64,000 bases of DNA, from the IMG/VR virus record IMGVR_UViG_3300028454_001154. One strand, given 5' to 3'. Numbering within the stretch: the first letter of the stretch is position 1; each line of letters starts with the position of its first letter. This stretch comes from an uncultured virus (IMG/VR IMGVR_UViG_3300028454_001154). Lineage: Duplodnaviria; Heunggongvirae; Uroviricota; Caudoviricetes. Below are positions 6,696 through 51,193 of this stretch, in pieces. The position numbers and the translations under genes are program-made. The notes below the pieces were generated by a model that was not told the origin of the DNA, did not search any database, and was given only the letters and a program-made list of their open reading frames with translations.

Positions 6696-6709
6696 CTAAG
6701 GAGGAAACC

Positions 6710-29587: not shown

Positions 29588-29588
29588 T

Positions 29589-32053: not shown

Positions 32054-32127
32054 GCGGGTGTAGTTTAACGGAAGAACATCAGACCTCCAATCTGATCGTC
32101 GGGGTTCGATTCCTCGTATCCGCTCCA
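32054..32127 (+). tRNA. tRNA-Gly(UCC), with C at position 33
   Basis: GCGGGTG/TATCCGC acceptor, TCAGA-CCTCCAA-TCTGA anticodon arm, T loop TTCGATT, TCCA end. Confidence 0.85.
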
Positions 32128-32503: not shown

Positions 32504-34840
32504 ATGGCCGATAAGAATGCTTCGCGGCTGAAACAGATCGACAGATACAATCACTTGATTGAGCGGGAAATGGGCGTCACAGTAGTTCGCCCTTTCAGAC
32601 AAGATGGATACATCAACCTCGTAAACCGCTATGGCACTTCGAAGGATATCAATGAACATTATCGGTTCATGCCAGAGCCGGATGTTCCGGATGAAGTGAT
32701 TTCGCGATTCTACGAAGGCAACGGTTTGTTCGCGAAGATCATCGATGCCCCCGCAGAAGAAGCCGTCAAGCATGGCTTTGAACTGGAGGATGTCACTGAC
32801 AGCAGACTCGTTACCTTCTACAGCGAAGCACTGGACGAGCTGGATTGGGAAGAAACTGCTATGACGGCTGTCAAGTGGGCCAGATTGTTCGGCGGCTCCA
32901 TTGCTGTCATGCTCATCAACGATGGCAGAGGACTGGAAGAACCGCTTGACTGGAGGAACATCAAGTCCATTGATGATATCCGGGTCTTCGACAGGTCGCT
33001 TATCAGTCCTGATTACCAAAGCCTGTACAACTACGAAGGCTTCGACCCGTTCCGGACAAGAGGCTCCCGCCTTGGTATGCCCGAGACCTTTCAGGTTTCC
33101 AGCATGTATGGAACCTTTGTAGTCCATGAAAGCCGCTGTCTTGTTTTCCAAAACGGCATTCTCCCTGAAAACACGGAAAGAAGCGAGTATCAGGTCTGGG
33201 GCGTTCCCGAGTATATCCGCATCCATCGGGCTGTCCGTGATGCCGAGATCGCTCACGGCAATGCACCAAAGTTGCTTGAACGATCCGTCCAGCCTGTCTA
33301 CAAAATGAAGGATCTGTCAGCGGAGCTTTCTACAGAGCAAGGCGAGAACTTCCTTCTTCGCAGGCTGCAGGCCATCGACGCGGCGCGTGGCTTAATGAAC
33401 AGCATAGTCGTGGATGCCGAGGGCGAGGATTACCATTTCGAGCAATTCAGCTTTAGCGGGATCAACGATGTATTGGCAGCTTCCTGCAACATGCTTTCCG
33501 CCGTAACGAATATTCCTCAGACCATCCTGTTCGGTCAGCCTGTCGGAGGTCTCAGCTCCACGGATGATACGGCGATGGAGAACTACTACAACTACGTCGA
33601 GCGCATTCAGAAACGAATGCTTCGAAGCAATCTTAGATATCTGCTGTCTGTCATTTTCCAAGCTGGTGTTCGCACTGGTGAGGTTGATGAAGTTCCCAAG
33701 ATCAAGGTTAAGTTCAATCCGCTGTGGTCGCTTTCTGATGCAGAGCAGGCGTCCCTTGAACAGCAGAAGGCTCAGGTCCAGCAGACCAAAGCTCAGACAG
33801 CTCAGATTTATGTTGGCATGCAAGCCATCGATCCTACCGAGGTTCGCAAGAAGCTGGCTGATTCTGAAGAGTTTGACGTTGAGAATATGCTCGACGAGTA
33901 CGACGATGAAGACCTGTTTGGCGAGGAGATCCCGGAAGAGCTGTCCTATCTTAGCGAGGAAGACCAGCAGAAGGCTCTCGAACTGTACGGCAGTTATGGC
34001 GGAGCCCATCCTCCTCAGCCGCAAGCGCAAGGAGAAGGCGGCGAACAACCGGGCATGGATCCTGCAGCAGGGATGATTCCTCAAATGCCAGGCGTTGCGG
34101 AAGCACCCAAAAACACCGATCCAGGCACAGAAGGCTCTGCATCTCCTGCGGCTCCAGCAGCTACGAAGCTCCCTCAGGATATGAGCCCGGAAGAACTCGC
34201 AAATCTTAATAAAGCCCCCAGAATGGGAGAAAGCGAGGAAAAGGATAAACTACCTTCCGAATCAGAAAACAAGGATTCTGAGGCTTTTTCTGCGATTTCC
34301 AATTCAGGCGAGGACAAAAAAACTATTGACATTGCTTCCGTTCATGATATCGTATCCTTAAAGGATTACATCCTCCAGTTTCAAAGCGACGAAACCATGC
34401 ATGCCGATTTCGGAAGAAAGGGCATGAAATGGGGCCAGCATATCTTTGGCAATGAATCCGAGACGAGCAAAGCCAATAGAAAAGACCTGATGGCAAAGCT
34501 CAATAACGGAACTTTGTCTTATAAGATGAGTGCGTCAAGGCAAAACCGCCACAGAAAGGGAACACCCGAAAATGCCAAGGCAGCCGCAGCGGGATCAATA
34601 AAGTCCGTCGTTACTATTGGCGATGCAGAACTGAAACGCATTGTCAACAATCACGAAGGTAGCTTGCGGGTAGTTAAAAAGAGTGACGGCAGCTATCGGG
34701 AGTTTTTCCGCGCCGAAAAGAATATCGGAATAGCTGTCGGCAAAAGCGGTAAAGGATCGCTCACGGTATATGGATGTATCTTCTACAGCCGATACGGCTG
34801 GCATGTAGTTCCTGTGTTGGAGGAAGAGATATATGGATAA
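32504..34840 (+). CDS. DUF1073-type portal protein fused to a C-terminal Ntox50-like RNase toxin domain
   Basis: Portal motifs KIIDAPAEEA, WARLFGGS, IPQTILFGQ, NYYNYV, FNPLW. After an acidic linker: QNRH..G...IG......T....IFYSRYGWHVVP. Confidence 0.85.
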   Translation: MADKNASRLKQIDRYNHLIEREMGVTVVRPFRQDGYINLVNRYGTSKDINEHYRFMPEPDVPDEVISRFYEGNGLFAKIIDAPAEEAVKHGFELEDVTDSRLVTFYSEALDELDWEETAMTAVKWARLFGGSIAVMLINDGRGLEEPLDWRNIKSIDDIRVFDRSLISPDYQSLYNYEGFDPFRTRGSRLGMPETFQVSSMYGTFVVHESRCLVFQNGILPENTERSEYQVWGVPEYIRIHRAVRDAEIAHGNAPKLLERSVQPVYKMKDLSAELSTEQGENFLLRRLQAIDAARGLMNSIVVDAEGEDYHFEQFSFSGINDVLAASCNMLSAVTNIPQTILFGQPVGGLSSTDDTAMENYYNYVERIQKRMLRSNLRYLLSVIFQAGVRTGEVDEVPKIKVKFNPLWSLSDAEQASLEQQKAQVQQTKAQTAQIYVGMQAIDPTEVRKKLADSEEFDVENMLDEYDDEDLFGEEIPEELSYLSEEDQQKALELYGSYGGAHPPQPQAQGEGGEQPGMDPAAGMIPQMPGVAEAPKNTDPGTEGSASPAAPAATKLPQDMSPEELANLNKAPRMGESEEKDKLPSESENKDSEAFSAISNSGEDKKTIDIASVHDIVSLKDYILQFQSDETMHADFGRKGMKWGQHIFGNESETSKANRKDLMAKLNNGTLSYKMSASRQNRHRKGTPENAKAAAAGSIKSVVTIGDAELKRIVNNHEGSLRVVKKSDGSYREFFRAEKNIGIAVGKSGKGSLTVYGCIFYSRYGWHVVPVLEEEIYG

Positions 34841-35084: not shown

Positions 35085-35189
35085 CCCTGATATAAAAGAC
35101 CCGAGAATCGGCCTATTTGATTTATTATCGTAATCAACGGAGTTGCTTAATGCAGCTCCGTTTTCTTATACCAAAAAGGCGGTGTTGTA

Positions 35190-38100
35190 TTGGATACTGA
35201 ATACTATAATGCTCTGCAGCGGCTTGAAATCCCTCAGGCCACGTTTGACAACATCATATCGGATGAAGGCACCCGGCAACAGATTGTCGAGTGCCTTTAT
35301 CATTGCTTCACTAACGTACCTTCCTTAAAGGAGGTTGCGTCTGTTCTGCTGCAATACACCGCCGCCCATGTCCATATGGATGATGACGACATCGATTGGA
35401 TCACTGTCGAGAACGGCGAGCATGTTCCGCTCAAAAACGGAACGGCGATTGGCGGGCCGCTCAAAGGGGCTGACTTCGGCTATGCCAAAAGCGAAACAGG
35501 CTTTTCTTCTAAAAGCAAAAAAGCAGAATCTGCCTTTACACCAAAACGGTCAGATTATGCATTCGAGCAGAAGGATCAATACGGTGTTGTCAAGGTGTCT
35601 GACTTCGACCCGTATGATCAGCGCGATGCTTGGGAGGAAATCAACCGAGACAAGCTGAAAGAGCTTGTAGATCAGGACAGAGAAGCATCCAAGAAGGAAG
35701 GCCGGGCGCGGACACCTATTACCGCTCTGATTGACCGGGAATGGTATGGTTCCAAAACCGAGAAAGTCACCCCAGACAGCTTCGAGCTGATGGATGACGT
35801 TAAGGCCGACAATGTTTTGGCCGAGAAGATGCCGAGGAACGTGTTCCTTGGCTGGTTCCGCGAGGCTGACAGCAATTACAAGCCGAGGGTCATCGATTCC
35901 ATCATCAGCACACCGGAGACGAGAACAGCAGCCCTCAGCATTATGTATGAGAATTATCGTCAGCTTGTCGACGATACTCTTTCATTCGAGGATTTTCTGA
36001 CGACTCCCGTCAAGATGTATCGTGGCGGTCATGGACAGAAGCACATGAAAGAGGACATCTTTTCCGCCTACTCTTTCAGCAAAAGCACCGCTCAAAAGTT
36101 CGCCGGGAACGATGGAAACGTCTATGAAGCTGAGATCCGGCCAATAGACACTTGGGGCAGTGTTACCACAAATAAGGAATCTGAGATCATGGTCCCGTCG
36201 TGGATCGCTCCGAATGGCAATGTTGATCATGCCGATTCTGCCTATGACGAATGGTTGGAAGACAACCTCGATCAGTTTGCCTCTGACGATGAGGAGAAAG
36301 ACTTTTCCAATTTCCGCATGAAAGATGGAGCCAAAGTCCGATCTGCCATCCGAAAAGAGGATGTCGCTGCTGCGTGGAAATCCTTCAAAGAGACAAGGCA
36401 AGACGCTGATGATGTAGACTGGATCACCGTGGAAAACGGGACACATGTTCCCATCGACAAAAGTGGCAAAGCTGTCGGCGGACCTCTTGAAGGAAAGGAT
36501 TTCAGCAAGGCGCAAAGCCAGAAGAAGGCATTCTCGTCTGTTTCCAAGTCTGACACCTCGAACTTTGGCAAGCCCGGAAAGTATCAGGTTTATCGCTCTG
36601 GCGGTATTTTCGATTCTCCGCTCGGCTATCTTTCCTTTGGCATTGACAGAAATCAATCTGAACCATATGAGAAGGAAAGAGGCAAGCCGATAGAAGCATA
36701 CGATGTTGAAATCAAAAAGCCGTACAGCATGACCGGATCCGATTTCAACGATATGCAGGATGAAATCTGCAAAAAGTATCTCGGCAAGTCTTACTACGAA
36801 GGCGAAAACCTTTCCGAAATGCGCCAAATCATGAGCGAGGCTGCTGAAAAGCTGGAGCAGGAAGGATACGATTCAATTCTTCTCGAACAGAGAAACGCGC
36901 TGTCTGGCGAAAGCAAATATGAAGTTCTTCTCCTGAATAAGTATAAAGACCGTGCGGTTTCCACTTCTGACAAGAGCAATTCTGGTGCTACCGACAACAG
37001 AAAACAGCTTACTCCCAAAGAAAGCGCAAAACAGACTGCTGACCTCAACAAACATCTCCATGAAGCAGTCGATGCCGAGACATCCATGGAGAAAAAGTTC
37101 AATGCCGCCAAGGAGGCTATAAAGAACGCCCCTGTTGGTCAGAGCGTGAAGGTCGGCTTTACTGAATACCGCAAGCTGTTCGACACGGACGACAACCAAG
37201 AGAAATGCTACGCAATCGGAAGCAACGACCATCCTTCGAGATCATTCGACGAAGTCATGCACTTGGTTGGTTATGATGGCTGGGGCGCAGAACCTGAGTT
37301 TGTCGATTTCGTTTCTCAAATGAAAGCAGCTCAGGATAAGGTCAATGAGCTCCGCGATTCTGGCAAGGTTTCTGGATCCGATGAAGTCAAAAAGGCCGAA
37401 GAAGGCTTGATCAATTCCCGCAGTTCCGATTACGGAAAACCCGGAGAATATGCCATATATCGCACTGGCGCTATTCCCCAAAAAGGAATGACGTTTTTTG
37501 CAGCCACCAAAGAGGGCGCGGATTCTTATGCCGGGCTGCATCCTGAAGGAACTACTGTCCAGTATAAAGTCAATCTTTCCAACCCGCTTGTTGTGACGGG
37601 ATCTGCTGACGGTGAATGTCTGAGAAAGGCGTATGAGACACTGCATCCGGGACAAAAGATGGAAGGTGAGCTCAACTCCAAGTCGTGGATGAAAGCTGAT
37701 AAGCAGAATGCAGCAGCCCTTGCCAGCAGCGAATACGACTCCATCATTTACATCGTCAATGGAAAGCCTACTGAGATTCAGATGCGGGCAAATGATGCTG
37801 ACAAAAAGGCGGAGAAGCTCGGCTCCTATACAACGACAGCGTGGTCCAGAAGCGGCAGAAATCTCGAACGTGCCATGTACGATGATATGTTCAAAAAGGA
37901 GCCTGACGATTATGTCAGAGTAGACGGTAGAGAAGATGGCGGCCCCGGATCCGGGAACTTCAATCACAAAGGAAGGCCCGGGGAGCAAGGCGGCTCAGCA
38001 CCCGGCAACGGCTCCAGAGAGGTTGCACACGGTAAGGACATTACCAAAAGCTATAATGGCCCTACCGACATCAAGTCTGTCATCCATGCTCAGGGCTTCG

Positions 38101-39401
38101 ATGGTTTGCCCAAGGTCGTTAAGAAAGCTGAGTTTGATGCTGCCGTCAAGAAAAGCAGTTTCATAGCCCAAAGAACATACTCCGCATCATCTCAGGAGAT
38201 TCTGGATGCATACCGAGATCAGCTGTACAACGGCGAATGGTATGTTGAATGCACTGTCGGTGGCGCCGGATATGGTCAGGGCATGTACTGTGCCGCTGAT
38301 TATGATGGGGAACTCAGCGATGGCATTAGAACTGAGATTCTCCATTACCAACAGCTTTACGACAGGACGGCAACTCATGAAGAAGCCATGGAAACGCTTA
38401 CGGGTTTGCTTCAGACATCCGTAGTTCGTAGGGCAAAGAATGATCTCAATGAGCGGTTCCACAAGTATGTTGATGGCTTTGATTTCCAAAGCGGCAAATG
38501 GAAAGAGGACTTTCGAGAAGAAGCAAAGGCGTTCAAAGACTCTGACCCCACTCTGTATGATAAGCTGTTGGGCTCCCTGCGACAGAAGGAAAGCTGGTAT
38601 GATGATCAGCTTCAGCAGGCGAAGTTTATGAGCGTCTCTGAGATCGCTGGAAAGTATCATATTCCCGTCGAAGTTGATGTTCCCTCATTTACGGAAACGC
38701 TTACGCTTGATCCAAGCGCGAAAATCATCACATATGATGATATCGATGGTATCTATAATGGGCGAATGGCAGAAAGCGAGACCAAGGCCATCCGCGACGG
38801 TGTACTCAAGAAGAGTGTTGAGAGTTTGGATGATAACGAGAAGACGTTTGTCAGGTACAATATTTTGTTCGGAACTGAAGATAGTGTGTCTTGGGATGAA
38901 GTGTACGAAGCGGCCAAGGATATGTCGAAAGAGAAACGGTCAGAGCTTGTCGCACTGTCTCGCAGCATCTATGAACAAGCGAGCAAGGAAATAGATAAAG
39001 CAAAAGATGAGCGTTATGAGACAGCCAGAAAGAACAGGGATAAATACCAAGACATTGGAGCGTTCGCAGCCGCTCTTGGATACGACGCCATCAATGCTGA
39101 GAATCATGGAGCTTCTGGGTCCTATACGGTTGTTCTAAACAGGACGAAAGTTCTGTTCCTTGATGAAAGTGAGCATATGGACAGCAAAGAGGATTCTGTT
39201 ATCACGTTCCAGCTCGGCAAGGATGGTGTTGTTTACGCTATTAAGGATCGAAAGGTTGTCGGCTGGGTCAAAGAGTATTTCTCCCAAAAGGAAGAGGCTG
39301 CCTCCGATCGCAAAGACAATCGCACCGATTCCAAGCGTGTTCTCAGCTATGAAGAGCTTCAGAATGCCTATACCAAGGCGAATAAAGCCGATATTGTATA
39401 G
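35190..39401 (+). CDS. 1403-aa polyvalent protein with four ADP-ribosyltransferase-like domains
   Basis: YRG..SAYSFS..ESE; two related YR.G..F....Y....P..YDSI..E domains; GFDGLP..YGQGMY..GYDAI..VLNR. Repeated linker modules lie between them. Confidence 0.7.
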   Translation: MDTEYYNALQRLEIPQATFDNIISDEGTRQQIVECLYHCFTNVPSLKEVASVLLQYTAAHVHMDDDDIDWITVENGEHVPLKNGTAIGGPLKGADFGYAKSETGFSSKSKKAESAFTPKRSDYAFEQKDQYGVVKVSDFDPYDQRDAWEEINRDKLKELVDQDREASKKEGRARTPITALIDREWYGSKTEKVTPDSFELMDDVKADNVLAEKMPRNVFLGWFREADSNYKPRVIDSIISTPETRTAALSIMYENYRQLVDDTLSFEDFLTTPVKMYRGGHGQKHMKEDIFSAYSFSKSTAQKFAGNDGNVYEAEIRPIDTWGSVTTNKESEIMVPSWIAPNGNVDHADSAYDEWLEDNLDQFASDDEEKDFSNFRMKDGAKVRSAIRKEDVAAAWKSFKETRQDADDVDWITVENGTHVPIDKSGKAVGGPLEGKDFSKAQSQKKAFSSVSKSDTSNFGKPGKYQVYRSGGIFDSPLGYLSFGIDRNQSEPYEKERGKPIEAYDVEIKKPYSMTGSDFNDMQDEICKKYLGKSYYEGENLSEMRQIMSEAAEKLEQEGYDSILLEQRNALSGESKYEVLLLNKYKDRAVSTSDKSNSGATDNRKQLTPKESAKQTADLNKHLHEAVDAETSMEKKFNAAKEAIKNAPVGQSVKVGFTEYRKLFDTDDNQEKCYAIGSNDHPSRSFDEVMHLVGYDGWGAEPEFVDFVSQMKAAQDKVNELRDSGKVSGSDEVKKAEEGLINSRSSDYGKPGEYAIYRTGAIPQKGMTFFAATKEGADSYAGLHPEGTTVQYKVNLSNPLVVTGSADGECLRKAYETLHPGQKMEGELNSKSWMKADKQNAAALASSEYDSIIYIVNGKPTEIQMRANDADKKAEKLGSYTTTAWSRSGRNLERAMYDDMFKKEPDDYVRVDGREDGGPGSGNFNHKGRPGEQGGSAPGNGSREVAHGKDITKSYNGPTDIKSVIHAQGFDGLPKVVKKAEFDAAVKKSSFIAQRTYSASSQEILDAYRDQLYNGEWYVECTVGGAGYGQGMYCAADYDGELSDGIRTEILHYQQLYDRTATHEEAMETLTGLLQTSVVRRAKNDLNERFHKYVDGFDFQSGKWKEDFREEAKAFKDSDPTLYDKLLGSLRQKESWYDDQLQQAKFMSVSEIAGKYHIPVEVDVPSFTETLTLDPSAKIITYDDIDGIYNGRMAESETKAIRDGVLKKSVESLDDNEKTFVRYNILFGTEDSVSWDEVYEAAKDMSKEKRSELVALSRSIYEQASKEIDKAKDERYETARKNRDKYQDIGAFAAALGYDAINAENHGASGSYTVVLNRTKVLFLDESEHMDSKEDSVITFQLGKDGVVYAIKDRKVVGWVKEYFSQKEEAASDRKDNRTDSKRVLSYEELQNAYTKANKADIV

Positions 39402-39464
39402 CAGAGTGTCAAGGATGCTCTGCTTTCTTGATTCCCATTTTGAGCGCAAGGAGGTGTATGCCGC

Positions 39465-40581: not shown

Positions 40582-41514
40582 TTGGATAATCAACATCTTC
40601 ATGAGATGACAAAGGAGGCTGCCAAGGGCGCTTTCAAAGGAAAGAAAAGCCTCCCTTGCAAAACGGTCCCGAGATACCCTGCATCAGCCGAACGGGAGTT
40701 CCGCAGGGTTATGAACGCCTATATGAAAATCCTGAACAGCGAACTCAAGAAAGAGCTGCCGTCCATCATGAAAGCCTATAAGGCGGAACTCGGAAATGAT
40801 TCCCGGTTTGACAGCTTCAATGATTTGGAGAAGAAGATCAGAGAGTCGTTTCTGATTATCTCAAAGGCGCTGGAGCAGAAATACTTCCGTTTTGATTTGA
40901 AGCGGAAGTTAGACGCCATTGCCAAGAGGGCCAAAGAAATCACTGCTGATGAGTGGTATAGGACGGTAAAGCAAACGCTCGGAATCGACCTGATGAAGGA
41001 CTACTACAAAGGTTCGTTTTATGAGGAAGGCGTCAAGAACTGGGTAGGGCAGAATGTGCAGAATATTCACACACTGCCCAATCAGGTGCTTGATGATATC
41101 CGGGACACCATCATAGATGGATATCGGAAAGGCATCCACGTTAAAGACCTTCAGAAGGAAATCCAGCACAGGTACAACATATCGAAAGAAACGGCTCAGA
41201 CGATTGCGAGAGACCAGATGTCTACGCTTAATGCGCAGATAACTCAGGAACAGCACAGGTCGGCTGGCGTGACACGGTACAAATGGTCAACGTCAAGAGA
41301 CCAGCGCGTTCGCGATTGCCACAGGGAGCTTGATGGGAAAATCATTTCTTGGGACGATCCTCCCGAAATGTGGTACATGACAAAGTCCAGAGGCAAAGTA
41401 TACACAGGCAGGCGATGCCATCCCGGCGAAGATTATTGCTGCAGATGCGTCGCACTGCCTGTTTTTGATGAAGACACAATAATCCTCCCGATGAATGGGA
41501 CGGACAAGAGGTAA
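40582..41514 (+). CDS. MuF / SPP1 gp7-family minor head protein (short form, no toxin extension)
   Basis: IARDQ...LN, YKWSTSRDQRVRDCH..LDG, HPGEDYCCRCVA.P. Confidence 0.9.
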   Translation: MDNQHLHEMTKEAAKGAFKGKKSLPCKTVPRYPASAEREFRRVMNAYMKILNSELKKELPSIMKAYKAELGNDSRFDSFNDLEKKIRESFLIISKALEQKYFRFDLKRKLDAIAKRAKEITADEWYRTVKQTLGIDLMKDYYKGSFYEEGVKNWVGQNVQNIHTLPNQVLDDIRDTIIDGYRKGIHVKDLQKEIQHRYNISKETAQTIARDQMSTLNAQITQEQHRSAGVTRYKWSTSRDQRVRDCHRELDGKIISWDDPPEMWYMTKSRGKVYTGRRCHPGEDYCCRCVALPVFDEDTIILPMNGTDKR

Positions 41515-41980: not shown

Positions 41981-44356
41981 TTGTATAACGATTCCTTTCT
42001 GGATACGCTTGCCCATGCATACCGTGACGCAAGAGACAAAAATGAAAGCCTTGCCAAGTACCTGATAGGCGTATTCCATGAAATCGGTGTACTCCACAAC
42101 GATGGTGGTCCGGGCTCCGGGAATCATGGTCATAAGGGTGTACCGGGGCAGGTGGGTGGTTCCGCTCCGTCAGGCTCTGGAAGCGGCCCCAAATTCGTTG
42201 GCAGGTCTAAGAGAGACTTTTTCCCTGCCACATCATATATGGATAGCCCCGTTTTTCAGAAAGCGGTAAAGGCCGCGAAAGAAGCATTGCAAAAGCGTGA
42301 GCAATTGTCCAAACGAATAGAAGAGATCGATACTGAACTCAAGACGGAATCCAAGCCGAAGCCTCGAAAGTATTGGACGGATAAAGACATGATCGATGAT
42401 TTACTCGGTCGTCGGCCCAAGATTCTTACAGAAAGAGGCGAACAACTCCAAAAGGAACGGAAGAAAGTCTTCAATGAAAAGATGGACGCTGATCATCAGT
42501 TCACTGATGAAGGCGAAAAGCTAAATAAGCTAAAAAAAGAAGCCCATCGGCGTGAGATCGAAAGCTTTCACCCAGAACCTTTGGTCCCTGCGCAGAACGA
42601 TGATTACGAGGGCTTCACTCTTGAAGAAACAAGCAACAGCTACGGTGACGAATATCTGCACAATGGGCAAGGCGTTATTTGCGAGATGACTCCAAAGGAA
42701 TACCTTGAGCGATGTGCATATGAGATCTTTGACGACGCGACTATAGAGTCTTGTGTTTCGGCCATTGACGAAGAAATCGCTCGGGGATATGCCAAAAAAA
42801 TGCGCGATGGCACTAAGTTTCATCTTCCATACCTGAATTATAAACAGGGCGGGCAGGAAGGTCGCCACCGTGCTTATGCTGCTTACTTGTGCGGCATTGA
42901 CAAGATTCCTGTTCTTATAATCGGACGCTCAAGACGTCAAGACGGCGGGCCCGGTTCCGGCAATTTCGGCCATGAAGGTCGGCCCGGCGAAGTCGGCGGA
43001 AGCGCTCCTTCTGATGATGCCAGCGATACCCCTACAGCGACGAATCCTCAGGCTATTTCCAAACGCAGGGCCAACGAAACAATAGCCTCCATTCTTGGAA
43101 ATGGCGAATCCTCTGATGACCGAAGGGACAAGCTCAAGAAAATCGTCGATCAGTTGCATCCGGGCAGCAAAGTCCAGATGCCCGACACTTGGGATAATGA
43201 CGATGGAACCCATGTTGTCTATATCAAGGATGATGTCAACGGTGAAAGCCGCTGGTATCAAAAGTACGACGGGCAAAAAATGTACATGAGCGAAGACGAC
43301 CTTGTGTACTACATGCTCAGCGAGTACGACAATTTCAACGGGAATCTCTGCAAAGTGACATCCTCCGCTGAAAGCGAGGCAGAAAAGCGGGCGGCAGTTG
43401 AAGAATGGAACAAGAAATACAATTGGCGATATAATGCTTCGATCTGGCAGGACCATGGAGCGCTGACAGAACAAGCATCTATTCATATGCAGAAGTTCGA
43501 TCTGGATAACTGCGGTTATGGATTTGAACTTACAGGGTCGGACGGGAAGAAGTATATTAAAGACCAATACCTTGGATGGGTTGACAGCGACACATACAAG
43601 AAAGCAGACATGCGCAAGCTGAAGAATCCGACATTTGAAGGAGATTTCTTCGATATAAACCTCGGAATGAATGGTGTTTCTGCAGAATCTTGCGCGAAAG
43701 TACGAGAAGTATATGAAAATCTTCCCGAAAAGCTCAAGACGGCTTATGAAGACCGATTCAGAAATCAATCCTGTTTTGTCCAGAACCCGGAGTATGGCGT
43801 CAGCCATTGCGATGCTTACGGGAATGTTTCCCTGACACCTGATTCGTCCGCTCGAACCGTTTTCCATGAGTATGGGCACAGCATTGACTTCTACAGCGAG
43901 AAGATAAATGAGTTTCCATCTCAGCATCTGGACAGGTTGGGCAACAGCCCTCAGCAATATCGGCAGGATGTAGAGGCTATGGCAAAGGTTGTCGGGCTTT
44001 CCACTGACGGAAACGGAAACCTTACAGAATCGGAAGCCGATCGCACCCAAAAGTATTGGAGCTGGGCAAAGAATCAGGAAAAGAAAATCGCTGGGTTTGA
44101 AAATGTCTCCGATGCCATATCAGCTCTCACACACGCTTCGTGTGGAGAAGCGCTTTACGGAGGCCATGAGTCATCGTACTGGTATAAAGTATCTTCGCGT
44201 GGCGCCGCAAGCATGCGCTCCGCTGAGTTCTGGGCAGAATACTGCCAGATGAAAGCTTTTGGGCAAGAAGAAGCGCTTGACCTTATGAAGCAGATTGCGC
44301 CGAATCTTTACGATGCCTGCGAAAAGACTTATATGGAGGTCATTGAGAATGGCTAA
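41981..44356 (+). CDS. Polyvalent effector: shared leader, ParB/Srx-like domain, zincin metallopeptidase
   Basis: Two DGGPGSGN modules. QEGRHRAYAA, and FHEYGH...EFWAE. Confidence 0.7.
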   Translation: MYNDSFLDTLAHAYRDARDKNESLAKYLIGVFHEIGVLHNDGGPGSGNHGHKGVPGQVGGSAPSGSGSGPKFVGRSKRDFFPATSYMDSPVFQKAVKAAKEALQKREQLSKRIEEIDTELKTESKPKPRKYWTDKDMIDDLLGRRPKILTERGEQLQKERKKVFNEKMDADHQFTDEGEKLNKLKKEAHRREIESFHPEPLVPAQNDDYEGFTLEETSNSYGDEYLHNGQGVICEMTPKEYLERCAYEIFDDATIESCVSAIDEEIARGYAKKMRDGTKFHLPYLNYKQGGQEGRHRAYAAYLCGIDKIPVLIIGRSRRQDGGPGSGNFGHEGRPGEVGGSAPSDDASDTPTATNPQAISKRRANETIASILGNGESSDDRRDKLKKIVDQLHPGSKVQMPDTWDNDDGTHVVYIKDDVNGESRWYQKYDGQKMYMSEDDLVYYMLSEYDNFNGNLCKVTSSAESEAEKRAAVEEWNKKYNWRYNASIWQDHGALTEQASIHMQKFDLDNCGYGFELTGSDGKKYIKDQYLGWVDSDTYKKADMRKLKNPTFEGDFFDINLGMNGVSAESCAKVREVYENLPEKLKTAYEDRFRNQSCFVQNPEYGVSHCDAYGNVSLTPDSSARTVFHEYGHSIDFYSEKINEFPSQHLDRLGNSPQQYRQDVEAMAKVVGLSTDGNGNLTESEADRTQKYWSWAKNQEKKIAGFENVSDAISALTHASCGEALYGGHESSYWYKVSSRGAASMRSAEFWAEYCQMKAFGQEEALDLMKQIAPNLYDACEKTYMEVIENG

Positions 44357-44591
44357 GATCGATACAGGGTACACTCCAACAGATAAAGATAAAGCATTTT
44401 CAAAAGCTGCGTTAGATCGTGGCTGTCCATATCAGGCGAAATACATCCTCATGTTTGGCGTTGATGCTTTGGAACAAAGCCGTCTCATTGAAGGCATCAT
44501 TCCAAAGCATGAGGCGGTCTATAAGAAATGGGTTGAGGAAGGCCATCCGTGGGACTGGTATTTTGACCTTCCAGAAGACACGATTCTATAA
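44349..44591 (+). CDS. Small protein, candidate immunity
   Basis: 80 aa, GGAGG RBS, overlaps the upstream stop. Confidence 0.55.
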   Translation: MAKIDTGYTPTDKDKAFSKAALDRGCPYQAKYILMFGVDALEQSRLIEGIIPKHEAVYKKWVEEGHPWDWYFDLPEDTIL

Positions 44592-44602
44592 GGAGGATAG
44601 CA

Positions 44603-45763
44603 ATGGCGATAGATCGATTCCTCGATGATCTTGCATCGGCTTACAAAGGATCGCTCGGAACCAACGATCATCTTACTCTGTATTTGCTGGGCATTTTCCG
44701 TGAGATCGGTGTCATCCGAACTGACGGAGGCCCGGGAAGCGGAAACTGGGGCCATGAAGGCCGTCCAGGAAAAATCGGCGGCTCTGCCGAAGGCGGCGGC
44801 GTTCATAATAGGGAAGGAAGCAAAGCTCAGGGCTTCACCTCGTTTTCCAAAAAGAGTGCTGCTGCAGCCAAGCCGCACTCGTACACGATTGCTGACAGGA
44901 ATCTCGTCAAACAAATGAAAGGCTCCCTTATCAAGGTCAATGGCCGGATATATTCCGTAGCCGGGGATACCCTGTACGATATCAAGGCTCAAACATTCAG
45001 GCATGACTGGCCCACTATGGACGACACCGTTCAAGTGTTCCTCCACCATGGAGAGAACAAGAACTATTCCAAGGTCAAAGAGACGACAAGGCAGCATTTT
45101 GAAAGCATTGCTAAATCGTCCTTTAATGCTCAAAACGGGCAAGAAGCTGACGATAAGTTCCGCGAACAGTCCGGTAAGGTTTGGCGTACTTTGAGCCATG
45201 CACAGAAAAAAGACCTTTTTGGTTACACAGACTTCGATTATTCAGCCATAAACAGTGCTCTCAGGAGCAATGGAGGTTCCAGTCCGCTTGATGACGAGAA
45301 AACTGCAAGTCAGATTCGCAATATCACAAGAGCTATCGACAAGTCAGAACTCCAGCAGGACACTACCCTTTATCGCGGCGTTGCTAAGGGAACCTTCGAA
45401 AGTTTCATGGGGTTGCCATCAGGCTCACTTCAAGCTGACACTGTTGATCAGCTCGTAGGACGATGCAGAACAGATCACGGATTCCTGTCTTGCGGCTCGT
45501 CAAAAGAGAATGGGATGCCTCATTCCAACGTGCAATTGGAGATACTATGTCCAAAAGGTACTAAGGGTCTATACGCGGAGCCCTTTTCCGCTTTTGGCGA
45601 AGGCGATGGTGAGAAGTGGGACGGACGATCAAAGCAGAACAGCATTTCTCTTGAGGGCGAAACAATTCTGCAGCGGGGTACGTCGCTCGTTATTCTGTCT
45701 GCTGCTTATGACGGGAAGAAATACCGAATCAAGTGTGCTGTAAGAGGGCAAAGCCATAACTGA
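44603..45763 (+). CDS. VIP2/C3-like ADP-ribosyltransferase with shared leader
   Basis: YT...Y..IN..LR, LYRG, GFLSC, EGETILQRGT (R-S-ExE). Confidence 0.85.
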   Translation: MAIDRFLDDLASAYKGSLGTNDHLTLYLLGIFREIGVIRTDGGPGSGNWGHEGRPGKIGGSAEGGGVHNREGSKAQGFTSFSKKSAAAAKPHSYTIADRNLVKQMKGSLIKVNGRIYSVAGDTLYDIKAQTFRHDWPTMDDTVQVFLHHGENKNYSKVKETTRQHFESIAKSSFNAQNGQEADDKFREQSGKVWRTLSHAQKKDLFGYTDFDYSAINSALRSNGGSSPLDDEKTASQIRNITRAIDKSELQQDTTLYRGVAKGTFESFMGLPSGSLQADTVDQLVGRCRTDHGFLSCGSSKENGMPHSNVQLEILCPKGTKGLYAEPFSAFGEGDGEKWDGRSKQNSISLEGETILQRGTSLVILSAAYDGKKYRIKCAVRGQSHN

Positions 45764-45833
45764 TTTCTGCTTGCCTTTGCCTTTTGAAATGGTACAATGT
45801 AGATATAGAAACCATCTACAAGGAGGTCGTTGA

Positions 45834-46076
45834 ATGAAGAACCCGAGATTTGCCGACGATTCCGATTTCGGCGAGACCGTTGGTCCTGATCCCGATAAGA
45901 TTCCTTGTCGGAACTGTGCTTTGAGAGCGGAGGATTCCAAGTTCGGAAGCTTTGTCGAACCCGGATGCATTTCGGCGAAATGTCAAGTCTACGACATCAA
46001 ACCGAGTGAGATCCTGCTTGAGTATAAGGAATGTCCATATCACGTTGCCGAGGACAATCCTGAAGAAGACGAGTAA
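45834..46076 (+). CDS. Small Cys-rich protein, candidate immunity, with own promoter
   Basis: CRNC...C..Y..KP......CPY. Promoter TTGCCT-16-TACAAT at 45771 and terminator at ~46093-46123. Confidence 0.65.
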   Translation: MKNPRFADDSDFGETVGPDPDKIPCRNCALRAEDSKFGSFVEPGCISAKCQVYDIKPSEILLEYKECPYHVAEDNPEEDE

Positions 46077-46150
46077 CAAACCAATACTGCATGAAGCAGA
46101 GTACATTAAGTGCTCTGCTTTTTGTTTTGCCTGAACGGGGATGATGTTAT

Positions 46151-46324
46151 ATGAGGGAGAAGGAACTAATCGAAGTTTACATACGGACTGAGGCCGGGAA
46201 AACAGTCTGTATTTGTGAGCGGTCTCACAAGATGTGCGATAAAAAGTGTGAATGTGACATTGTCGAACGCGACAGGTTCCGTGGCTGGCAAGATGTCATG
46301 CGGGTGAATAAATACGGGAAATAG
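46151..46324 (+). CDS. Small Cys-rich protein (57 aa, not in ORF track)
   Basis: Open frame MREKELIEVY...CIC.....C...C.C...NKYGK directly before the next gene. Confidence 0.45.
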   Translation: MREKELIEVYIRTEAGKTVCICERSHKMCDKKCECDIVERDRFRGWQDVMRVNKYGK

Positions 46325-46329
46325 TTGTC

Positions 46330-47022
46330 ATGAAAGACTTTTCTGATTCCTTTATCAAACAGGTTGCCACAGCCTATATAGAAAGTGTTGGCGTGAACGA
46401 CGGCCTTGCAGATTATCTTCTCAGCATCCTTCAAGAAATCGGCGTTTTTACGCCATCATCTATTGACAAATCTTGCTCTAATAGTATGATGGTAACAGAA
46501 GCGAAGCATTCGGATTACGGCGTCAAAGGTATGAAATGGGGCGTTCGTAAAGAACGGCTATCCAAAAAGGACCTCGACGCTCTTACACGCTACAAATCGT
46601 CTGAGTCTTACAAAATCAATGCCAAGCTCCGCGATGGAGGGTATGACGCTCTACCCGATCCAGACAAGGCTTTTGTCGACCAGTTGGACGCTGCGCTGAA
46701 GAAGATGCCCCACTATGAAGGCCCTATCATTCGTGATCTTCTAATCGATGATCCAGAGGAATTATCGGATTTCCTTTCTAAGCATCCGCAAGACGGCCTA
46801 TCTCAATATGAAGCATATTCCTCTTTCAGCAAAAAGCCGGGATACAATCCAGATGCGAATGTCCACCTTGTAGTGCAGCATTCCAAGAATGCCCGTGATA
46901 TCAGTAATATTGGCCTTAACGAGAATGAGGTCATATATGAACGGGGGGCTCGATTCCATGTTTCGCGGATAATCCAAAGCGGAAATCAGTGGTACATCAT
47001 GGAGGAAGAAGTCAATGGATGA
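46330..47022 (+). CDS. VIP2/C3-like ADP-ribosyltransferase with shared leader and GMKWG module
   Basis: AL.RY....SY.IN.KLR, LD.ALKKMP.YEG...R, YSSFS, ENEVIYERG. Confidence 0.82.
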   Translation: MKDFSDSFIKQVATAYIESVGVNDGLADYLLSILQEIGVFTPSSIDKSCSNSMMVTEAKHSDYGVKGMKWGVRKERLSKKDLDALTRYKSSESYKINAKLRDGGYDALPDPDKAFVDQLDAALKKMPHYEGPIIRDLLIDDPEELSDFLSKHPQDGLSQYEAYSSFSKKPGYNPDANVHLVVQHSKNARDISNIGLNENEVIYERGARFHVSRIIQSGNQWYIMEEEVNG

Positions 47023-47227
47023 TGAAGAGTATATTCCCGGTTTTGAGCACGTACAGAAAGGCTACGGCGGGAAGATAGCAAAACTGTGTGGATTTGTTCA
47101 CGTCGACGAGGCCACCCGCGCCAAAAATTACGAAGAAGCGCTCAAGATGGTAGCTTGGTATGAAGAAGGCCGCGAAAAAGCTCGGCAAGAGATGATTAAG
47201 AAAGGTCTTATTGGGCCGGATGATTAG
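47015..47227 (+). CDS. Small protein, candidate immunity
   Basis: 70 aa, GGAGG RBS, overlaps the ART stop. Confidence 0.55.
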   Translation: MDDEEYIPGFEHVQKGYGGKIAKLCGFVHVDEATRAKNYEEALKMVAWYEEGREKARQEMIKKGLIGPDD

Positions 47228-47786: not shown

Positions 47787-48066
47787 AGCAGAAGTGCTTG
47801 AAGCCGCTAAGATTTGCGTGTGCGGACAGAGGGAGCAGGACTATGGTAGTCCCGAAGATAACTTCGGCGTTATTGCCGATCTGTGGTCTGTTTATTCGGG
47901 ACACAAGTTCAGCGCTCTTGATGTCGCCATGATGATGGCTCTGCTGAAGGTGGCCCGTATCAAAAGCGGTGGCGGAACCGGAGACAGCTTTGTTGACCTT
48001 GCTGGCTATGCAGCCTGTGCAGGAGAAATCCACAGCAGGCTGACGGAGGAGGAATCCGATGAATAG
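47779..48066 (+). CDS. DUF6378-like phage protein
   Basis: REQDYGSPEDNF..IA.LWS.Y, DVAMMMALLKVAR, DSFVDLAGYAAC. Confidence 0.75.
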   Translation: MNRAEVLEAAKICVCGQREQDYGSPEDNFGVIADLWSVYSGHKFSALDVAMMMALLKVARIKSGGGTGDSFVDLAGYAACAGEIHSRLTEEESDE

Positions 48067-49630
48067 CCCCACGCTGAAAAGAGTGATCCGTCTCGACAAC
48101 ATGCCTATGAACGAGACGTATTTCACTTCCGAAGGATACCTGCGCGATAAGCCGATACTGACTCGCGTGGGTATTTTTGAATACACAAACTCCGATGGAA
48201 GCATTCGTAGGGAGCTCAGACTACCCGAGGAAGTCTTCGATCCGGAAAGCCTTGCTTCCTATAAGGGAAAGCCCATCATCTGTACGCATGATGCCGGGCT
48301 GATCGATAAGGATAATGTGTCTGATGAAGGCATCGGCACAATCCTGTCGGAAGGGATTAAGGACGGAGACAATGTTAGAGCTGATATCGTCATTCACGAT
48401 ACGGATATTCTCAAAGAAACCAAGATGCGCGAGCTCAGCCTTGGCTATTCCTTGGATCTTGATGAAGAACCGGGTGAATGGAACGGAAAGCACTACGACG
48501 CTATCCAACGGAACATAAGAATCAATCACCTCGCTCTGGTTGGTGAGGCCAGAGCTGGCGATAAGGCACGGTTGAATATCGATGGCCGTGACTCTGAAAA
48601 ATCTCTCAAAGGAGGAAAAGGAATGAAGAACTCTCACACCGCCCGTACTGACGGTATCCTCTCCGCTGAAGAGCTGGAGCAGGCTATCGCTGAGTACAAG
48701 GCCAACCGCAAGAACAGCGCCACACCTGCTCAGGATGGCGAGGAGGGCAAGCCCATCATGAGTACCCCTCCCGTCATGAAACAACCGATGAAGGAGCCTG
48801 TCGTCAAGCCCGTCGAGAAGAAGGAAGACGAGGACGAGGATAAGCCCGTGTCTCCCATGGACACCAACGAGGCTATCGAGGAAAAGGTTGCCGCCATCAA
48901 GGATAAGCACGAAGATGAAGACCCTGATCTTCAGAAGCTGTACGACATCATCGACTCTCTGCTTGCTGAGCGCCAGTTCAAGGCTGCTGACTGCAAGAGC
49001 ATGGATGGCGAGGACGAGGAGGATGTCTTCGAGAAGGACTGCATCGTAAAGGACTCCGAAGATGAGACCGAGGTCAAGAAGCCTGCGTTCATGGAGGATG
49101 AAGATGACTTCGAGCTTACCGATAAGAAAAAGAAGAACAAAGCCCCCTTTATCGACGAGGATGATGCCGACGAGGATATTCCTGACACGAATGAAGAAGA
49201 GGCCGCGAACCTCGACGACGACGATGAGGACATCCCGGTGAAGACTCCCGAAGAGGTCGATGATGATAAGCCCCTGAACACTGACTCTGTTGACGCCATT
49301 GTTCGGGCTCGCATTCAGGTCGGCATGATGGGCCGTGCGTTGAACATGGATGGTCTGGAGTCTATGAAGCTGCGCGATGCGAGAAAGGCCATCATCAAGG
49401 CTGTTCGTCCTTCCATGAATCTGGATGGCAAGAGCAACGCTTTCGTTCGCGCTGCTTATGAGATGGCCTGTGATGAGATTCGCTCCCGTCGACAGAAGGA
49501 TACCCGCTATCAGAAGCGCCAGATGTTCAACGGCCTCCGCAAGGATTCCGCTGATAATTCTGGCTCCGCCAATGCTGCCCGTGAGCGCATGATTGCTCGC
49601 CAGCAGAACAGAAACAATAAGGAGGACTAA
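48059..49630 (+). CDS. DUF2213-type prohead protease / scaffold protein
   Basis: EGYL, RVGIFEY, SLAS..GKPI...H, ELSLGY, YDAIQRNI..NHLALV..ARAG. Long acidic scaffold-like C-terminus. Confidence 0.88.
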   Translation: MNSPTLKRVIRLDNMPMNETYFTSEGYLRDKPILTRVGIFEYTNSDGSIRRELRLPEEVFDPESLASYKGKPIICTHDAGLIDKDNVSDEGIGTILSEGIKDGDNVRADIVIHDTDILKETKMRELSLGYSLDLDEEPGEWNGKHYDAIQRNIRINHLALVGEARAGDKARLNIDGRDSEKSLKGGKGMKNSHTARTDGILSAEELEQAIAEYKANRKNSATPAQDGEEGKPIMSTPPVMKQPMKEPVVKPVEKKEDEDEDKPVSPMDTNEAIEEKVAAIKDKHEDEDPDLQKLYDIIDSLLAERQFKAADCKSMDGEDEEDVFEKDCIVKDSEDETEVKKPAFMEDEDDFELTDKKKKNKAPFIDEDDADEDIPDTNEEEAANLDDDDEDIPVKTPEEVDDDKPLNTDSVDAIVRARIQVGMMGRALNMDGLESMKLRDARKAIIKAVRPSMNLDGKSNAFVRAAYEMACDEIRSRRQKDTRYQKRQMFNGLRKDSADNSGSANAARERMIARQQNRNNKED

Positions 49631-50155: not shown

Positions 50156-51193
50156 ATGGCTAAGAGCAAAAAGCACATGAACTATGACAAGGCGGATGCC
50201 AAGGCTCTCCTGAAGTCTGCCATCCCCACTGCCATTCTCAACTCTCCCGGCACTCGTTTCGACAGTGCCGAGGATGCTTCGGTATTTTTCGCTCGTGAGC
50301 TGGATCACGTCAAATCCCAGTCTTACGACGTCGAATACCCCGAGATGACCGCGCTGTCGAAGTTCCCCATCACCTCTGAGGCTGATCCCGGCGCTGAGAC
50401 AGTTACTTATTACACCTACGATAAGCAGGGTCTGGCAAAGGTCATCGACAACTACAGCGACGACCTGCCCCGCGCGGACGTGAACGGCAAGCCCTCCACG
50501 GCTGTTGTGAAGTCCCTCGGTGATTCCTATGGCTACTCCGCTCAGGAGATGCGTGCTTCCCGTCTGGCTGGCAAGTCTCTTGACAGCCGCAAGGCCGAGG
50601 CCGCCCGGTATGCCATCGACAACAAGACCAACATGATCGCTTGGAGAGGCGATGCCAACAGCGGTCTGCTGGGCGTCCTGTCCACTGAGCAGAACATTCC
50701 TCTGTACACCGTTCCCAACGGTGCTGCCGGAAGCTCTTCTTGGAAGACCAAGACTGCCGATGAGATTCTGGCCGATGTAAGCGGCATGCAGATGCAGGTC
50801 GCTGAGACCACCAATAACGTCGAGCGTCCTGATACTCTGTGCGTCCCCGCTGATGTCTATATGGATATCAGCACCCGTCGCATTCCCGACACCAGCAGCA
50901 CTGTCCTGAAGTTCATCCTTGACCATTCTCCGTACATCAAGGAAGTCATCAGCACCGCTGAACTGGGCGCGAAGAACACTGAGACTAACCCCTATGCTGC
51001 TGCTTCTGGCGGCTCCGGTGTTGCCTTCCTGTTTACCAATAACGAGCGTAAGCTCGCGTTGGAGAACCCCATGCCCTTCTATCAGTATCCCATCCAGACC
51101 CGCAATCTGGAGACCATCATTCCCTGCGAGGCCCGCACTGCTGGCGTCATCGTGTACTATCCGATGTCTGCCCTGATTGCTGTCGGCGTCTAA
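50156..51193 (+). CDS. Major capsid protein (DUF2184-type)
   Basis: FFAREL, DDLP.AD, YGYS.QE, W..KT..EI..D, RTAGVIVYYP. Strongest codon bias in the window. Confidence 0.9.
   Translation: MAKSKKHMNYDKADAKALLKSAIPTAILNSPGTRFDSAEDASVFFARELDHVKSQSYDVEYPEMTALSKFPITSEADPGAETVTYYTYDKQGLAKVIDNYSDDLPRADVNGKPSTAVVKSLGDSYGYSAQEMRASRLAGKSLDSRKAEAARYAIDNKTNMIAWRGDANSGLLGVLSTEQNIPLYTVPNGAAGSSSWKTKTADEILADVSGMQMQVAETTNNVERPDTLCVPADVYMDISTRRIPDTSSTVLKFILDHSPYIKEVISTAELGAKNTETNPYAAASGGSGVAFLFTNNERKLALENPMPFYQYPIQTRNLETIIPCEARTAGVIVYYPMSALIAVGV

Follow-up and report, generated by a model that had tools for sequence, protein, structure and literature searches.

To our knowledge, how effectors are loaded into heads for injection is largely unknown for phages other than T4. 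In polymorphic toxins, pre-toxin boundary motifs are known, for example VENN in CdiA and PxxxxDPxGL in Rhs. The capsid targeting sequence (CTS) of phage T4, described in part in PMC5512222, is a short N-terminal peptide shared by otherwise unrelated internal proteins (IPI-III and Alt), which are packed inside the head and then injected. Alt is an ADP-ribosyltransferase (ART). MuF polymorphic toxins are described as head-module proteins with a constant virion-entry part and a variable C-terminal toxin, often with a small ORF behind (Jamet et al., 2017, PMC5576092). Polyvalent proteins carry several effectors, have their genes next to those for portal, terminase and MuF, and are predicted to be packaged (Iyer et al., 2017, PMC5512222). 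Residues 286-326 of Pa193 gp24 (PDB 9B40) form a helix-turn-helix that binds the capsid interior (PMC11456595).

The window, i.e. the whole stretch of 64,000 nucleotides that was analysed, contains three + strand genes, at 41981, 44603 and 46330, whose products (791, 386 and 230 aa) start with a common peptide of about 37 residues, the leader (Table 1). As with the T4 CTS, a short N-terminal peptide stands on several head-module proteins with differing bodies, and two of the cargos are ARTs like Alt; however, the leader is longer (37 residues, two predicted helices) and the head is of another type, with Pbunavirus-like capsid and cement proteins and a scaffold-like DUF2213 protein. The locus resembles the MuF polymorphic toxins in that the genes lie in the head module near the portal gene, each with a small ORF behind it, and in that the ART cargos have MuF-fused homologues, but here MuF is a separate gene and the constant part is the 37-residue peptide. 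Polyvalent proteins are exactly the proteins that are punctuated by the glycine motif found behind two of the leaders, although two of the three leader proteins have a single effector domain. Scaffold coat-binding domains (P22 gp8, Pa193 gp24) are likewise helix-turn-helices of about 40 residues, a fold that is only predicted for the leader, which has no sequence or profile similarity to the scaffold protein. Like the pre-toxin boundary motifs, the glycine motif is short and conserved, and the domains downstream of it are exchanged by recombination; it differs in being multicopy (up to seven per protein) and in occurring in phage head-module proteins rather than secreted toxins.

We give about an even chance to the reading that the leader is a non-covalent head-loading adaptor on modular, virion-delivered effectors. 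The effectors would be built as address, junction and cargo. As the address, the helix-turn-helix leader would bind the protein non-covalently to some part of the head during assembly, the candidates being the scaffold-like DUF2213 protein, the capsid interior, MuF or the portal. The capsid would then close around the attached effector, which would be injected together with the DNA. The leader is read as a loading handle because in related phages enzymes of this kind are fused to head proteins, and it would thus do the job of the covalent portal or MuF fusion. The junction motif would mark where one cargo cassette is exchanged for another, and it may also be a processing site that frees the cargo. 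If so, the locus is a concrete candidate for a small helix-turn-helix that replaces a covalent portal or MuF fusion, and the reading would account for the shuffling of phage effector arsenals.

Table 1. Head-module features and parts of the three leader genes, with positions in the window
Feature	Position	Strand	Remarks
Portal protein fused to Ntox50	32504..34840	+	KGMKWG junction motif between them at 34418-34435
1403-aa polyvalent protein	35190..39401	+	Own ~60-aa N-terminal module
Stand-alone MuF (SPP1 gp7-like) head protein	40582..41514	+	PF04233; candidate docking partner
791-aa protein ORF	41981-44356	+	TTG start
Leader of 791-aa protein, aa 1-37	41981..42091	+	GGAGG 7 nt 5' of TTG start
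Glycine junction motif DGGPGSGNHGHKGVPGQVGGS, behind leader of 791-aa protein	42101..42163	+	
Cargo module 1, 791-aa protein	42164..42940	+	ParB/Srx-like (weak lead only)
Internal glycine junction motif between cargo modules, 791-aa protein	42941..43003	+	
Cargo module 2, 791-aa protein	43004..44356	+	HExxH motif (HEYGH, read from sequence)
Small ORF overlapping 3' end of 791-aa gene	44295..44591	+	Probable start: internal ATG near 44352
386-aa protein ORF	44603-45763	+	
Leader of 386-aa protein, aa 1-37	44603..44713	+	
Glycine junction motif DGGPGSGNWGHEGRPGKIGGS, 386-aa protein	44723..44785	+	
ADP-ribosyltransferase cargo, 386-aa protein	44786..45763	+	PF03496, 92.4 bits
80-aa Cys-rich ORF behind 386-aa ART gene	45834..46076	+	
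230-aa protein ORF	46330-47022	+	
Leader of 230-aa protein, aa 1-39	46330..46446	+	
Junction motif YGVKGMKWGVRK, 230-aa protein	46516..46557	+	Pfam DUF7211
Second ADP-ribosyltransferase cargo, 230-aa protein	46558..47022	+	PF03496, 39.1 bits
DUF2213 protein	48059..49630	+	Homologue of Pa193 gp24 scaffolding protein (E 1.2e-12); candidate docking partner
Major capsid protein (MCP)	50156..51193	+	PF09950; candidate docking partner

Sequence, distribution and predicted fold of the leader

An earlier note on this DNA had proposed a leader shared by three unrelated effectors, and the starts that it gave are the first residues of the three ORFs. Alignment of the three leaders showed 14 invariant columns (M1, D4, F6, A11, A13, Y14, N21, L24, Y27, L28, E34, I35, G36 and V37), which give the same consensus as the one noted before. 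When the leader of a related locus, L027, was included, the alignment score was matched by 0 of 2000 shuffles in all six leader pairs. Local alignment of the cargo pairs gave noise-level scores of 25-46 and no pairwise similarity, and BLASTP between the two ART cargos gave just E = 0.11 over 18 residues. The word 'unrelated' is too strong, because the cargos of the 386-aa and 230-aa proteins both match PF03496 (ADPrib_exo_Tox), each above the curated cut-off of 23.4 bits.

The DNA of the leaders is just 50-54% identical (55-60 of 111 nt), and the same codon is used at only 5-9 of the 15-18 identical residues per pair. The leaders thus diverged long ago under constraint at the level of the protein and do not stem from a recent duplication. 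Residues that are kept despite divergence at the codon level argue for selection on the leader peptide. It is very improbable that the leader is a functionless leftover of a duplicated 'leader plus junction' gene start, retained by recombination at the junction. Cargo swaps at the junction do leave the upstream part untouched, as would be expected of such a leftover, but half or more of the identical residues have different codons, and the 14 columns are invariant in the three leaders with the pattern kept in four more proteins; at such a DNA distance, neutral drift would have erased it.

A regular expression for the leader had three matches in the six-frame translation of the window, all at the three ORF starts. 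A profile search of 1.84 billion proteins (representatives) returned seven proteins at E <= 0.001, namely the window's own three, three new bearers and one repeat protein judged spurious; no T4-type internal protein was among these matches, and no leader relative was detected outside the leader's own small group. Together with contig scans, which used the three-leader alignment since the six-leader alignment was too variable, the cargo catalogue by leader profile that the earlier note had envisaged yielded four further bearers. The distinct bearers are thus the three window proteins, P0004/P0008, P0005/P0009, P0006 and L027; the leader is N-terminal (residue 1) in 7/7, the cargos differ, and all three junction types described below occur behind it. 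The leader is rare, and the genomic context of leader genes comes from one phage lineage and one 1.25-kb fragment. A word-indexed profile search returned the window's own three proteins alone (3/291 candidates), leader scans of species genomes found no relative among 66 pattern matches, and tblastn with the leader and the glycine motif found no match in 50,697 phage records, where the BLAST low-complexity filter may mask the motif. Viral contigs yielded neither P0005 nor P0004, and species genomes did not yield P0009, the longest contig of which is 37.8 kb.

AlphaFold2 models of eight leaders showed a helix at residues 2-17, a turn and a helix at residues 22-34 (mean pLDDT 84.8), so the leader is predicted to be a helix-turn-helix (two-helix hairpin), in agreement with the two-helix peptide supposed earlier. 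For the complete 230-aa protein, single-sequence AlphaFold2 gave no usable model (pLDDT 36). A Foldseek search of the PDB with the leader model gave nothing at E <= 0.001. Comparison by hhalign of the leader alignment with that of the phage's own scaffold (DUF2213) protein showed no similarity (probability 0.07%, E 0.67). The capsid-targeting role that had been proposed is therefore not borne out by profile comparison with the scaffold, but it agrees with the anatomy and the comparison with relatives, i.e. the N-terminal position, the head module and the place otherwise held by portal or MuF. A signal-peptide role was rejected, the leader being acidic and without a hydrophobic core as read from its sequence.

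Effector genes in the head module

The order of the head module, all on the + strand, is TerL, portal-Ntox50, polyvalent protein, MuF, the three leader genes, the scaffold-like DUF2213 protein, cement protein and MCP, so that the leader genes lie between the MuF and DUF2213 genes of a prophage head module. The 1403-aa polyvalent protein, which has no match among isolated phages, contains two WITVENGxHVP motifs (35397 and 36420) and a glycine junction motif (37935-37997). By its PHROG label, 'head maturation protease', the DUF2213 protein is a putative protease; the available part of the Pa193 paper describes the homologue as a putative scaffold, and the word 'protease' occurs 0 times in it (PMC11456595). 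Judged by title and abstract, none of the papers found on DUF2213 concerns head assembly.

In the 791-aa protein, which is encoded in a phage packaging context, a glycine motif separates two modules. Neither module has a Pfam match, and the Atlas lead for module 2 is 'Zincin-like metallopeptidase' (score 0.93). The 386-aa and 230-aa proteins have one Pfam effector domain each, and no MuF domain was found by Pfam in any of the three leader proteins. No longer homologue of the 230-aa cargo was found at E <= 1e-5. The 386-aa cargo also matches a PHROG named after Bxa with the label 'moron, auxiliary metabolic gene and host takeover'. Small ORFs lie behind all three effector genes, the third at 47015-47227. 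A homologue of the first is kept in L027, and its product is possibly an immunity or partner protein; homologues of the second, the 80-aa Cys-rich ORF, sit behind effector genes in L009, L012 and L013. A terminator-like hairpin (46093-46121) lies 3' of the latter ORF, and such hairpins flank some of the cassettes.

These features bear on the possibility that the proteins are not packaged, being late toxins or fitness factors that are released at lysis or act in the producing cell, with the leader as an export, regulation or immunity-binding peptide. The Bxa-named PHROG with its 'moron' label, the small ORF behind each effector gene, as in the toxin-immunity pairs in the available part of PMC5576092, and the hairpins beside some cassettes, as in morons, are all consistent with it. 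However, the leader lacks a hydrophobic signal-peptide core, the genes share their strand with the head module that surrounds them, these cargo modules also occur fused to portal and MuF, both of them virion components, and promoter-like sites are at chance level (18 found vs 16.4 expected). We regard this explanation as quite improbable.

Junction motifs and fused forms in relatives

Behind every leader stands a junction motif of one of three kinds, namely the glycine motif DGGPGSGNxGHxGRPGxxGGS, the motif HYGVKGMKWGVRK (KGMKWG), which corresponds to Pfam DUF7211, or WxTxNGxHV. In the 230-aa protein, DUF7211 (PF23847) was matched at residues 63-76 with 29.5 bits (curated cut-off 27). An 'xD site' had been noted earlier behind each leader; in two proteins this turned out to be the first residue of the glycine motif (DGGPGSGN...), and the third has no evident site of its own. 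Removal of the leader at maturation, also supposed in that note, found no support. The junction motifs behind the leader, on which the earlier note is silent, are a feature more general than the leader, and at least 1352 other proteins contain them.

The glycine motif, present in at least 1352 proteins, sits between the domains of phage polyvalent proteins and directly behind portal domains, with a median spacing between copies of 247 residues, and the domains of these proteins are ART-PolyVal, Zeta toxin, Ntox50, NUDIX, portal and MuF. The KGMKWG motif was found in 134 isolated phage records; it stands at ORF position <= 35 in 135 of 174 distinct instances, in small phage ORFs, and 60 of 75 loci, next to terminase and portal genes, have at least two copies. 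Several DUF7211 motifs per genome occur in cultured phages of Streptomyces, Gordonia and Arthrobacter, which are thus tractable systems; in Streptomyces phage TaidaOne, gp7, gp9, gp10 and gp11 are tagged in this way. A DUF7211-tagged ORF of L080 had no match in isolated phages. Literature searches returned nothing on DUF7211 and nothing relevant on GPGSGN. The terms 'glycine-rich', 'linker' and 'leader' have 0 occurrences in the available part of Iyer et al. (2017, PMC5512222), where the junction motifs and short N-terminal modules appear to be undescribed.

These motifs occur by far most often at the very start of small phage ORFs, so that loading might be signalled by the motif and not by the leader. 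The junction motif (glycine, KGMKWG or WxTxNGxHV) would then be the real head-loading or processing signal and the leader would do another job, for example keeping the toxin inactive, pairing effectors or directing them after injection. The far wider spread of the motifs than of the leader and the multicopy occurrence of KGMKWG beside terminase and portal genes are in line with this, as is the ART homologue in L005, in which the glycine motif is retained although the 20 residues at the start are quite different. A 37-residue two-helix hairpin, moreover, usually needs a partner or a second copy for stability, and the weak Foldseek rows for the leader, none of them significant, include a homodimerising hairpin. 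In contrast, the leader pairs with all three junction types, as would an independent module upstream of an exchangeable boundary, and stands exactly at the portal's place in relatives; internal motif copies can be explained as relics of fused cassettes, and a function would still be needed for a leader that is clearly under selection. We consider the motif as the real loading signal rather unlikely. Some polyvalent proteins with a C-terminal MuF (P0052, P0109 and P0113) also have a short peptide and then a glycine motif at their start, so a peptide that precedes the first motif is not necessarily an address.

The adaptor reading of the leader rests on its genomic context, N-terminal position, predicted fold and conservation, on the accessory nature of the genes (see below) and on the swapped and fused forms in relatives. 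In L006, L007 and L009 the glycine motif stands directly behind the portal part of a single protein of 1530-1905 aa; as far as the motif at residue 746 these portal fusions share about 90-100% identity, which falls to about 20% beyond it, and between L006 and L007 identity returns from the next motif, at 1186, at about 65% and rises to about 100%. Near-identical phages thus differ exactly from one junction motif to the next. L027 has the same upstream small ORF, leader (25/37 residues identical) and glycine motif as the 386-aa locus, with another cargo behind them. In the 791-aa protein, residues 75-343 (module 1) are 43-47% identical to the module behind the glycine motif in two portal fusions, P0048 and P0105. 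Matches of the ART cargos in isolated phages include the MuF-ART fusions phiCD24-1 gp4 and Alakazam gp6, the latter without the glycine motif, and many records carry the annotation MuF-like or minor head protein. The N-terminal part of PHROG 595 matches the window's MuF and its adjacent C-terminal part matches the 230-aa cargo. With the motif behind the portal and the cargos fused to portal or MuF elsewhere, the leader occupies the place of portal or MuF in relatives.

Wider reading and accessory nature of the leader genes

The junction motif behind the leader is very widespread and marks exchange points of effector cassettes. A broader reading, possible but doubtful, is that many tailed phages share an undescribed address, junction and cargo grammar for head-delivered effectors; the three junction motifs would be a universal boundary and a processing or ejection signal of the cassettes, and the exchangeable front ends (portal, MuF or lineage-specific peptides like the leader) would decide how the cassette is fixed in the procapsid. 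If this wider grammar is true, proteins could be directed into phage heads by a portable tag made up of the 37-residue leader and the 22-residue junction.

The nearest isolate is Faecalibacterium phage FP_Brigit, which infects Faecalibacterium prausnitzii and has an MCP 61% identical to that of the window, and no junction motif was found in its 11 ORFs after the terminase up to the scaffold-like gene. Relatives with 69-76% identical DUF2213 domains have other leaders or no such genes, suggesting that the leader genes are accessory in nature. The window also encodes a Gln_amidase protein; its N-terminus and the 'RRxxRL' leaders found in L008 and L012 show no more than a weak alignment, at 19-31% identity.

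The leader peptide and its bearers

The peptides in which the earlier note had read a common leader proved to be the starts of three plus-strand ORFs (leader genes 1 to 3 in the table), and the consensus drawn from them was borne out by 14 invariant columns in the alignment of the three leaders. In all six comparisons among four leaders, the real score was reached by none of 2000 shuffles. A six-frame translation of the window gave three matches to the leader pattern, all at these ORF starts. The leaders share 50-54% DNA identity, and different codons are used at no fewer than half of the identical residues; from this low identity and the differing codons, the leader must be old and under selection and not the product of a fresh duplication.

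A word-indexed search with the leader returned no proteins beyond the window's own three. HMMER, run in full with the leader profile on 1,835,955,588 representatives, gave seven proteins at E ≤ 0.001, namely the window's three, the database proteins P0004, P0005 and P0006, in all of which the leader starts at residue 1, and P0007. The last, a repeat protein of 616 aa, was matched in five internal stretches and was judged to be spurious. Cluster look-up yielded the longer forms P0008 and P0009. Among viral contigs the leader occurred only in two, 98% identical to the window, and a metagenome scan revealed one new leader locus, L027. When the leader HMM was run on the ORFs from six-frame translation of the window and of 26 loci, only the window and the near-identical loci L001-L004 matched, the best match elsewhere having E = 2.9. 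There are seven distinct bearers; the leader is N-terminal in all seven and the cargos differ.

Cargos and gene neighbourhood

The cargos had been called different and unrelated. Their pairwise scores were indeed at the level of noise, but Pfam places both the 386-aa and the 230-aa cargo among the PF03496 ADP-ribosyltransferases (ARTs); compared with each other by BLASTP, they gave E = 0.11. The 791-aa protein has two modules, neither with a Pfam match. For module 2 the Atlas lead is a zincin-like metallopeptidase, with a high score (0.93), and HEYGH is legible in the sequence; module 1 gave weak ParB-like leads alone (0.83).

Several cargos recur fused to virion proteins. Residues 75-343 of the 791-aa protein are 43-47% identical to the module behind a copy of the glycine motif (DGGPGSGNxGHxGRPGxxGGS) in the portal fusions P0048 and P0105, and its entire cargo was found again in P0064 and P0103 with other N-termini. 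phiCD24-1 gp4, which is 472 aa long and takes the MuF slot by its position after the portal gene, matches the 230-aa cargo; so do genes called 'minor head protein' in phages of Xanthomonas and Pseudomonas. On the PHROG 595 profile, the window MuF covers 125-302 and the 230-aa cargo 350-497. For the 386-aa cargo, the matches are actinophage genes whose annotation is a MuF-like ADP-ribosyltransferase fusion.

The prophage-like element in the window has almost all of its genes on the plus strand, and its gene order was assigned with Pfam and PHROGs. The closest isolate is Faecalibacterium phage FP_Brigit (61% identity in the major capsid protein). The portal carries Ntox50 and is therefore itself an effector carrier in the window phage.

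Features of the head module and the leader genes
Feature	Position	Strand	Length	Remark
Large terminase	28087
tRNA genes, four (Gln-ttg, Lys-ttt, Thr-tgt, Gly-tcc)	29513-29663, 30803-30878, 32054-32127			dispersed from terminase to portal genes, within the head module
Gln_amidase toxin (papain-fold)	30925-31683			between terminase and portal genes
Portal fused to Ntox50	32504-34840			Ntox50 toxin domain C-terminal (residues 677-770); KGMKWG before it at 34418-34435
1403-aa polyvalent protein	35190-39401		1403 aa	ART-PolyVal match below cut-off; flanked by strong terminator-like hairpins (35136-35162, 39400-39424)
Exonuclease-like protein	39465
MuF	40582
HD-domain protein	41514
Leader gene 1	41981-44356	+	791 aa	followed by small ORF
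Leader gene 2	44603-45763	+	386 aa	followed by small ORF
Leader gene 3	46330-47022	+	230 aa	followed by small ORF
DUF6378	47707
DUF2213 protein	48059-49630
Cement protein	49634
Major capsid protein	50156

At the window start (1-3022), a 342-aa ORF is cut and adjoins a minus-strand ORF of 579 aa, which by eye begins like a serine recombinase and may mark the prophage end. In two relatives, L005 (region 3505-5844) and L012 (region 6355-7575), the effector gene, which is the ART homologue in L005 and an ORF of 1162 aa in L012, has a small Cys-rich ORF behind it and after that an ORF starting MLGAIVGDVVGSIYEF… that is ADP-ribosylglycohydrolase-like by eye. This ORF, which the window lacks, could be an immunity gene.

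Junction motifs and the proposed loading signal

Each leader is followed by one of three short motifs: the glycine motif in the 791-aa and 386-aa proteins, P0005/P0009, P0006 and L027; HSDYGVKGMKWGVRK, which is Pfam DUF7211, in the 230-aa protein; and WKTINGTHVLLD in P0008. In the 791-aa protein a further glycine motif separates module 1 from module 2. The 1403-aa protein contains one internal glycine motif and two copies of WITVENGxHVP, and KGMKWG lies between portal and Ntox50.

A glycine-motif profile (A5) built from 11 copies matched at least 1352 proteins at E ≤ 0.001, with 8000 candidates scored. Among the 120 matches listed, 115 contained the strict motif, with 391 copies together, up to seven per protein and 247 residues apart at the median; 43 of the 120 had their first copy no further than 40 residues from the start. 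Precomputed Pfam domains in glycine-motif proteins included portal (PF06381 and PF04860), MuF, ART-PolyVal, ADPrib_exo_Tox, Zeta toxin, Ntox50 and NUDIX. A Pfam scan of 12 of the proteins showed no domain running across a glycine motif in any of them. In three nearly identical phages (L006, L007 and L009), the portal fusions keep ~90-100% identity as far as the motif at residue 746. Past this residue L006 and L007 share ~20% identity, rising from ~65% to ~100% from the motif at 1186, whereas L006 and L009 diverge only past 1186. L027 has the upstream small ORF, the leader (25 of 37 residues identical to the 386-aa leader) and the glycine motif as in the window, then a different cargo. These comparisons argue for the glycine motif as a general boundary of cargo cassettes.

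The retrieved text on polyvalent proteins (Iyer et al., 2017; PMC5512222) contained no occurrence of 'glycine-rich', 'linker' or 'leader', and that on MuF toxins (Jamet et al., 2017; PMC5576092) none of 'linker', 'glycine', 'motif' or 'cleav'. Nothing relevant was found in the literature under 'GPGSGN' or 'DUF7211'.

The loading signal could alternatively be the junction motif and not the leader, the main argument being that DUF7211 is a common start tag. The motif was found in 174 distinct instances in 75 viral loci, at ORF position 35 or earlier in 135 instances and in two or more copies in 60 loci. Tagged ORFs of L080, L077 and L041 lie between a small ORF upstream, the gene for the large terminase and that for the portal. 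The motif is also present in 134 isolated phage records; in Streptomyces phage TaidaOne, gp7, gp9, gp10 and gp11 are tagged, around the terminase and upstream of the portal gene. The annotated start of TaidaOne gp7 (L108 2624-3130; MKWGVRR…) falls within the motif; translation probably begins upstream, as for its L041 homologue.

The leader, for its part, is combined with all three junction types. Sequence comparison places it in the slot of portal or MuF in covalent fusions, and it is both selected and lineage-specific. It is most economically read as a putative non-covalent head-loading adaptor for modular injected effectors, a reading to which we give an even chance.

Predicted fold, candidate partners and other front ends

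AlphaFold2 predicted a confident helix-turn-helix for eight leaders, with low confidence at the start of the glycine motif; Foldseek with the leader model gave no significant match. The window DUF2213 protein is homologous to gp24 of Pa193 (PDB 9B40, E 1.2e-12), a scaffolding protein whose helix-turn-helix, according to the retrieved text of PMC11456595, attaches to the inside of the capsid at five-fold vertices. A similar fold type is predicted for the leader, but profile comparison of the leader with the window gp24 homologue showed no similarity. Among relatives, the conserved head proteins that diverge most are MuF, at 37-48% identity, and the scaffold in its C-terminal part, at 43-49%. 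This divergence is compatible with MuF or scaffold as a lineage-specific candidate partner but decides nothing. In the alignment of DUF2213 scaffold-like proteins (A6), the window protein lacks 19 residues ('RRDRRDE.GDPED..', columns 329-347) in the region corresponding to the Pa193 gp24 helix-turn-helix; these are present in all five aligned relatives, which have other leader types or none.

Proteins with an early glycine motif have recurrent yet differing N-terminal peptides, including an 'AARLL' helix, 'MEIGVV' (resembling the leader end) and a 93-residue domain. The 1403-aa protein begins with an N-terminal module of its own, ~60 residues long, which shares 39-43% identity with the beginnings of P0032 and P0040; these have a glycine motif at the place of the window's WITVENG. 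Of the relatives with DUF2213 domains 69-76% identical, L008, L012 and L005 carry other effector leaders, and L010 and FP_Brigit lack such effector genes. The Gln_amidase start (…RKRLRRDAD…FRTAENGKVYAI) bears only a weak likeness (19-31% identity) to the leaders of the 'RRxxRL' type in L008 and L012.
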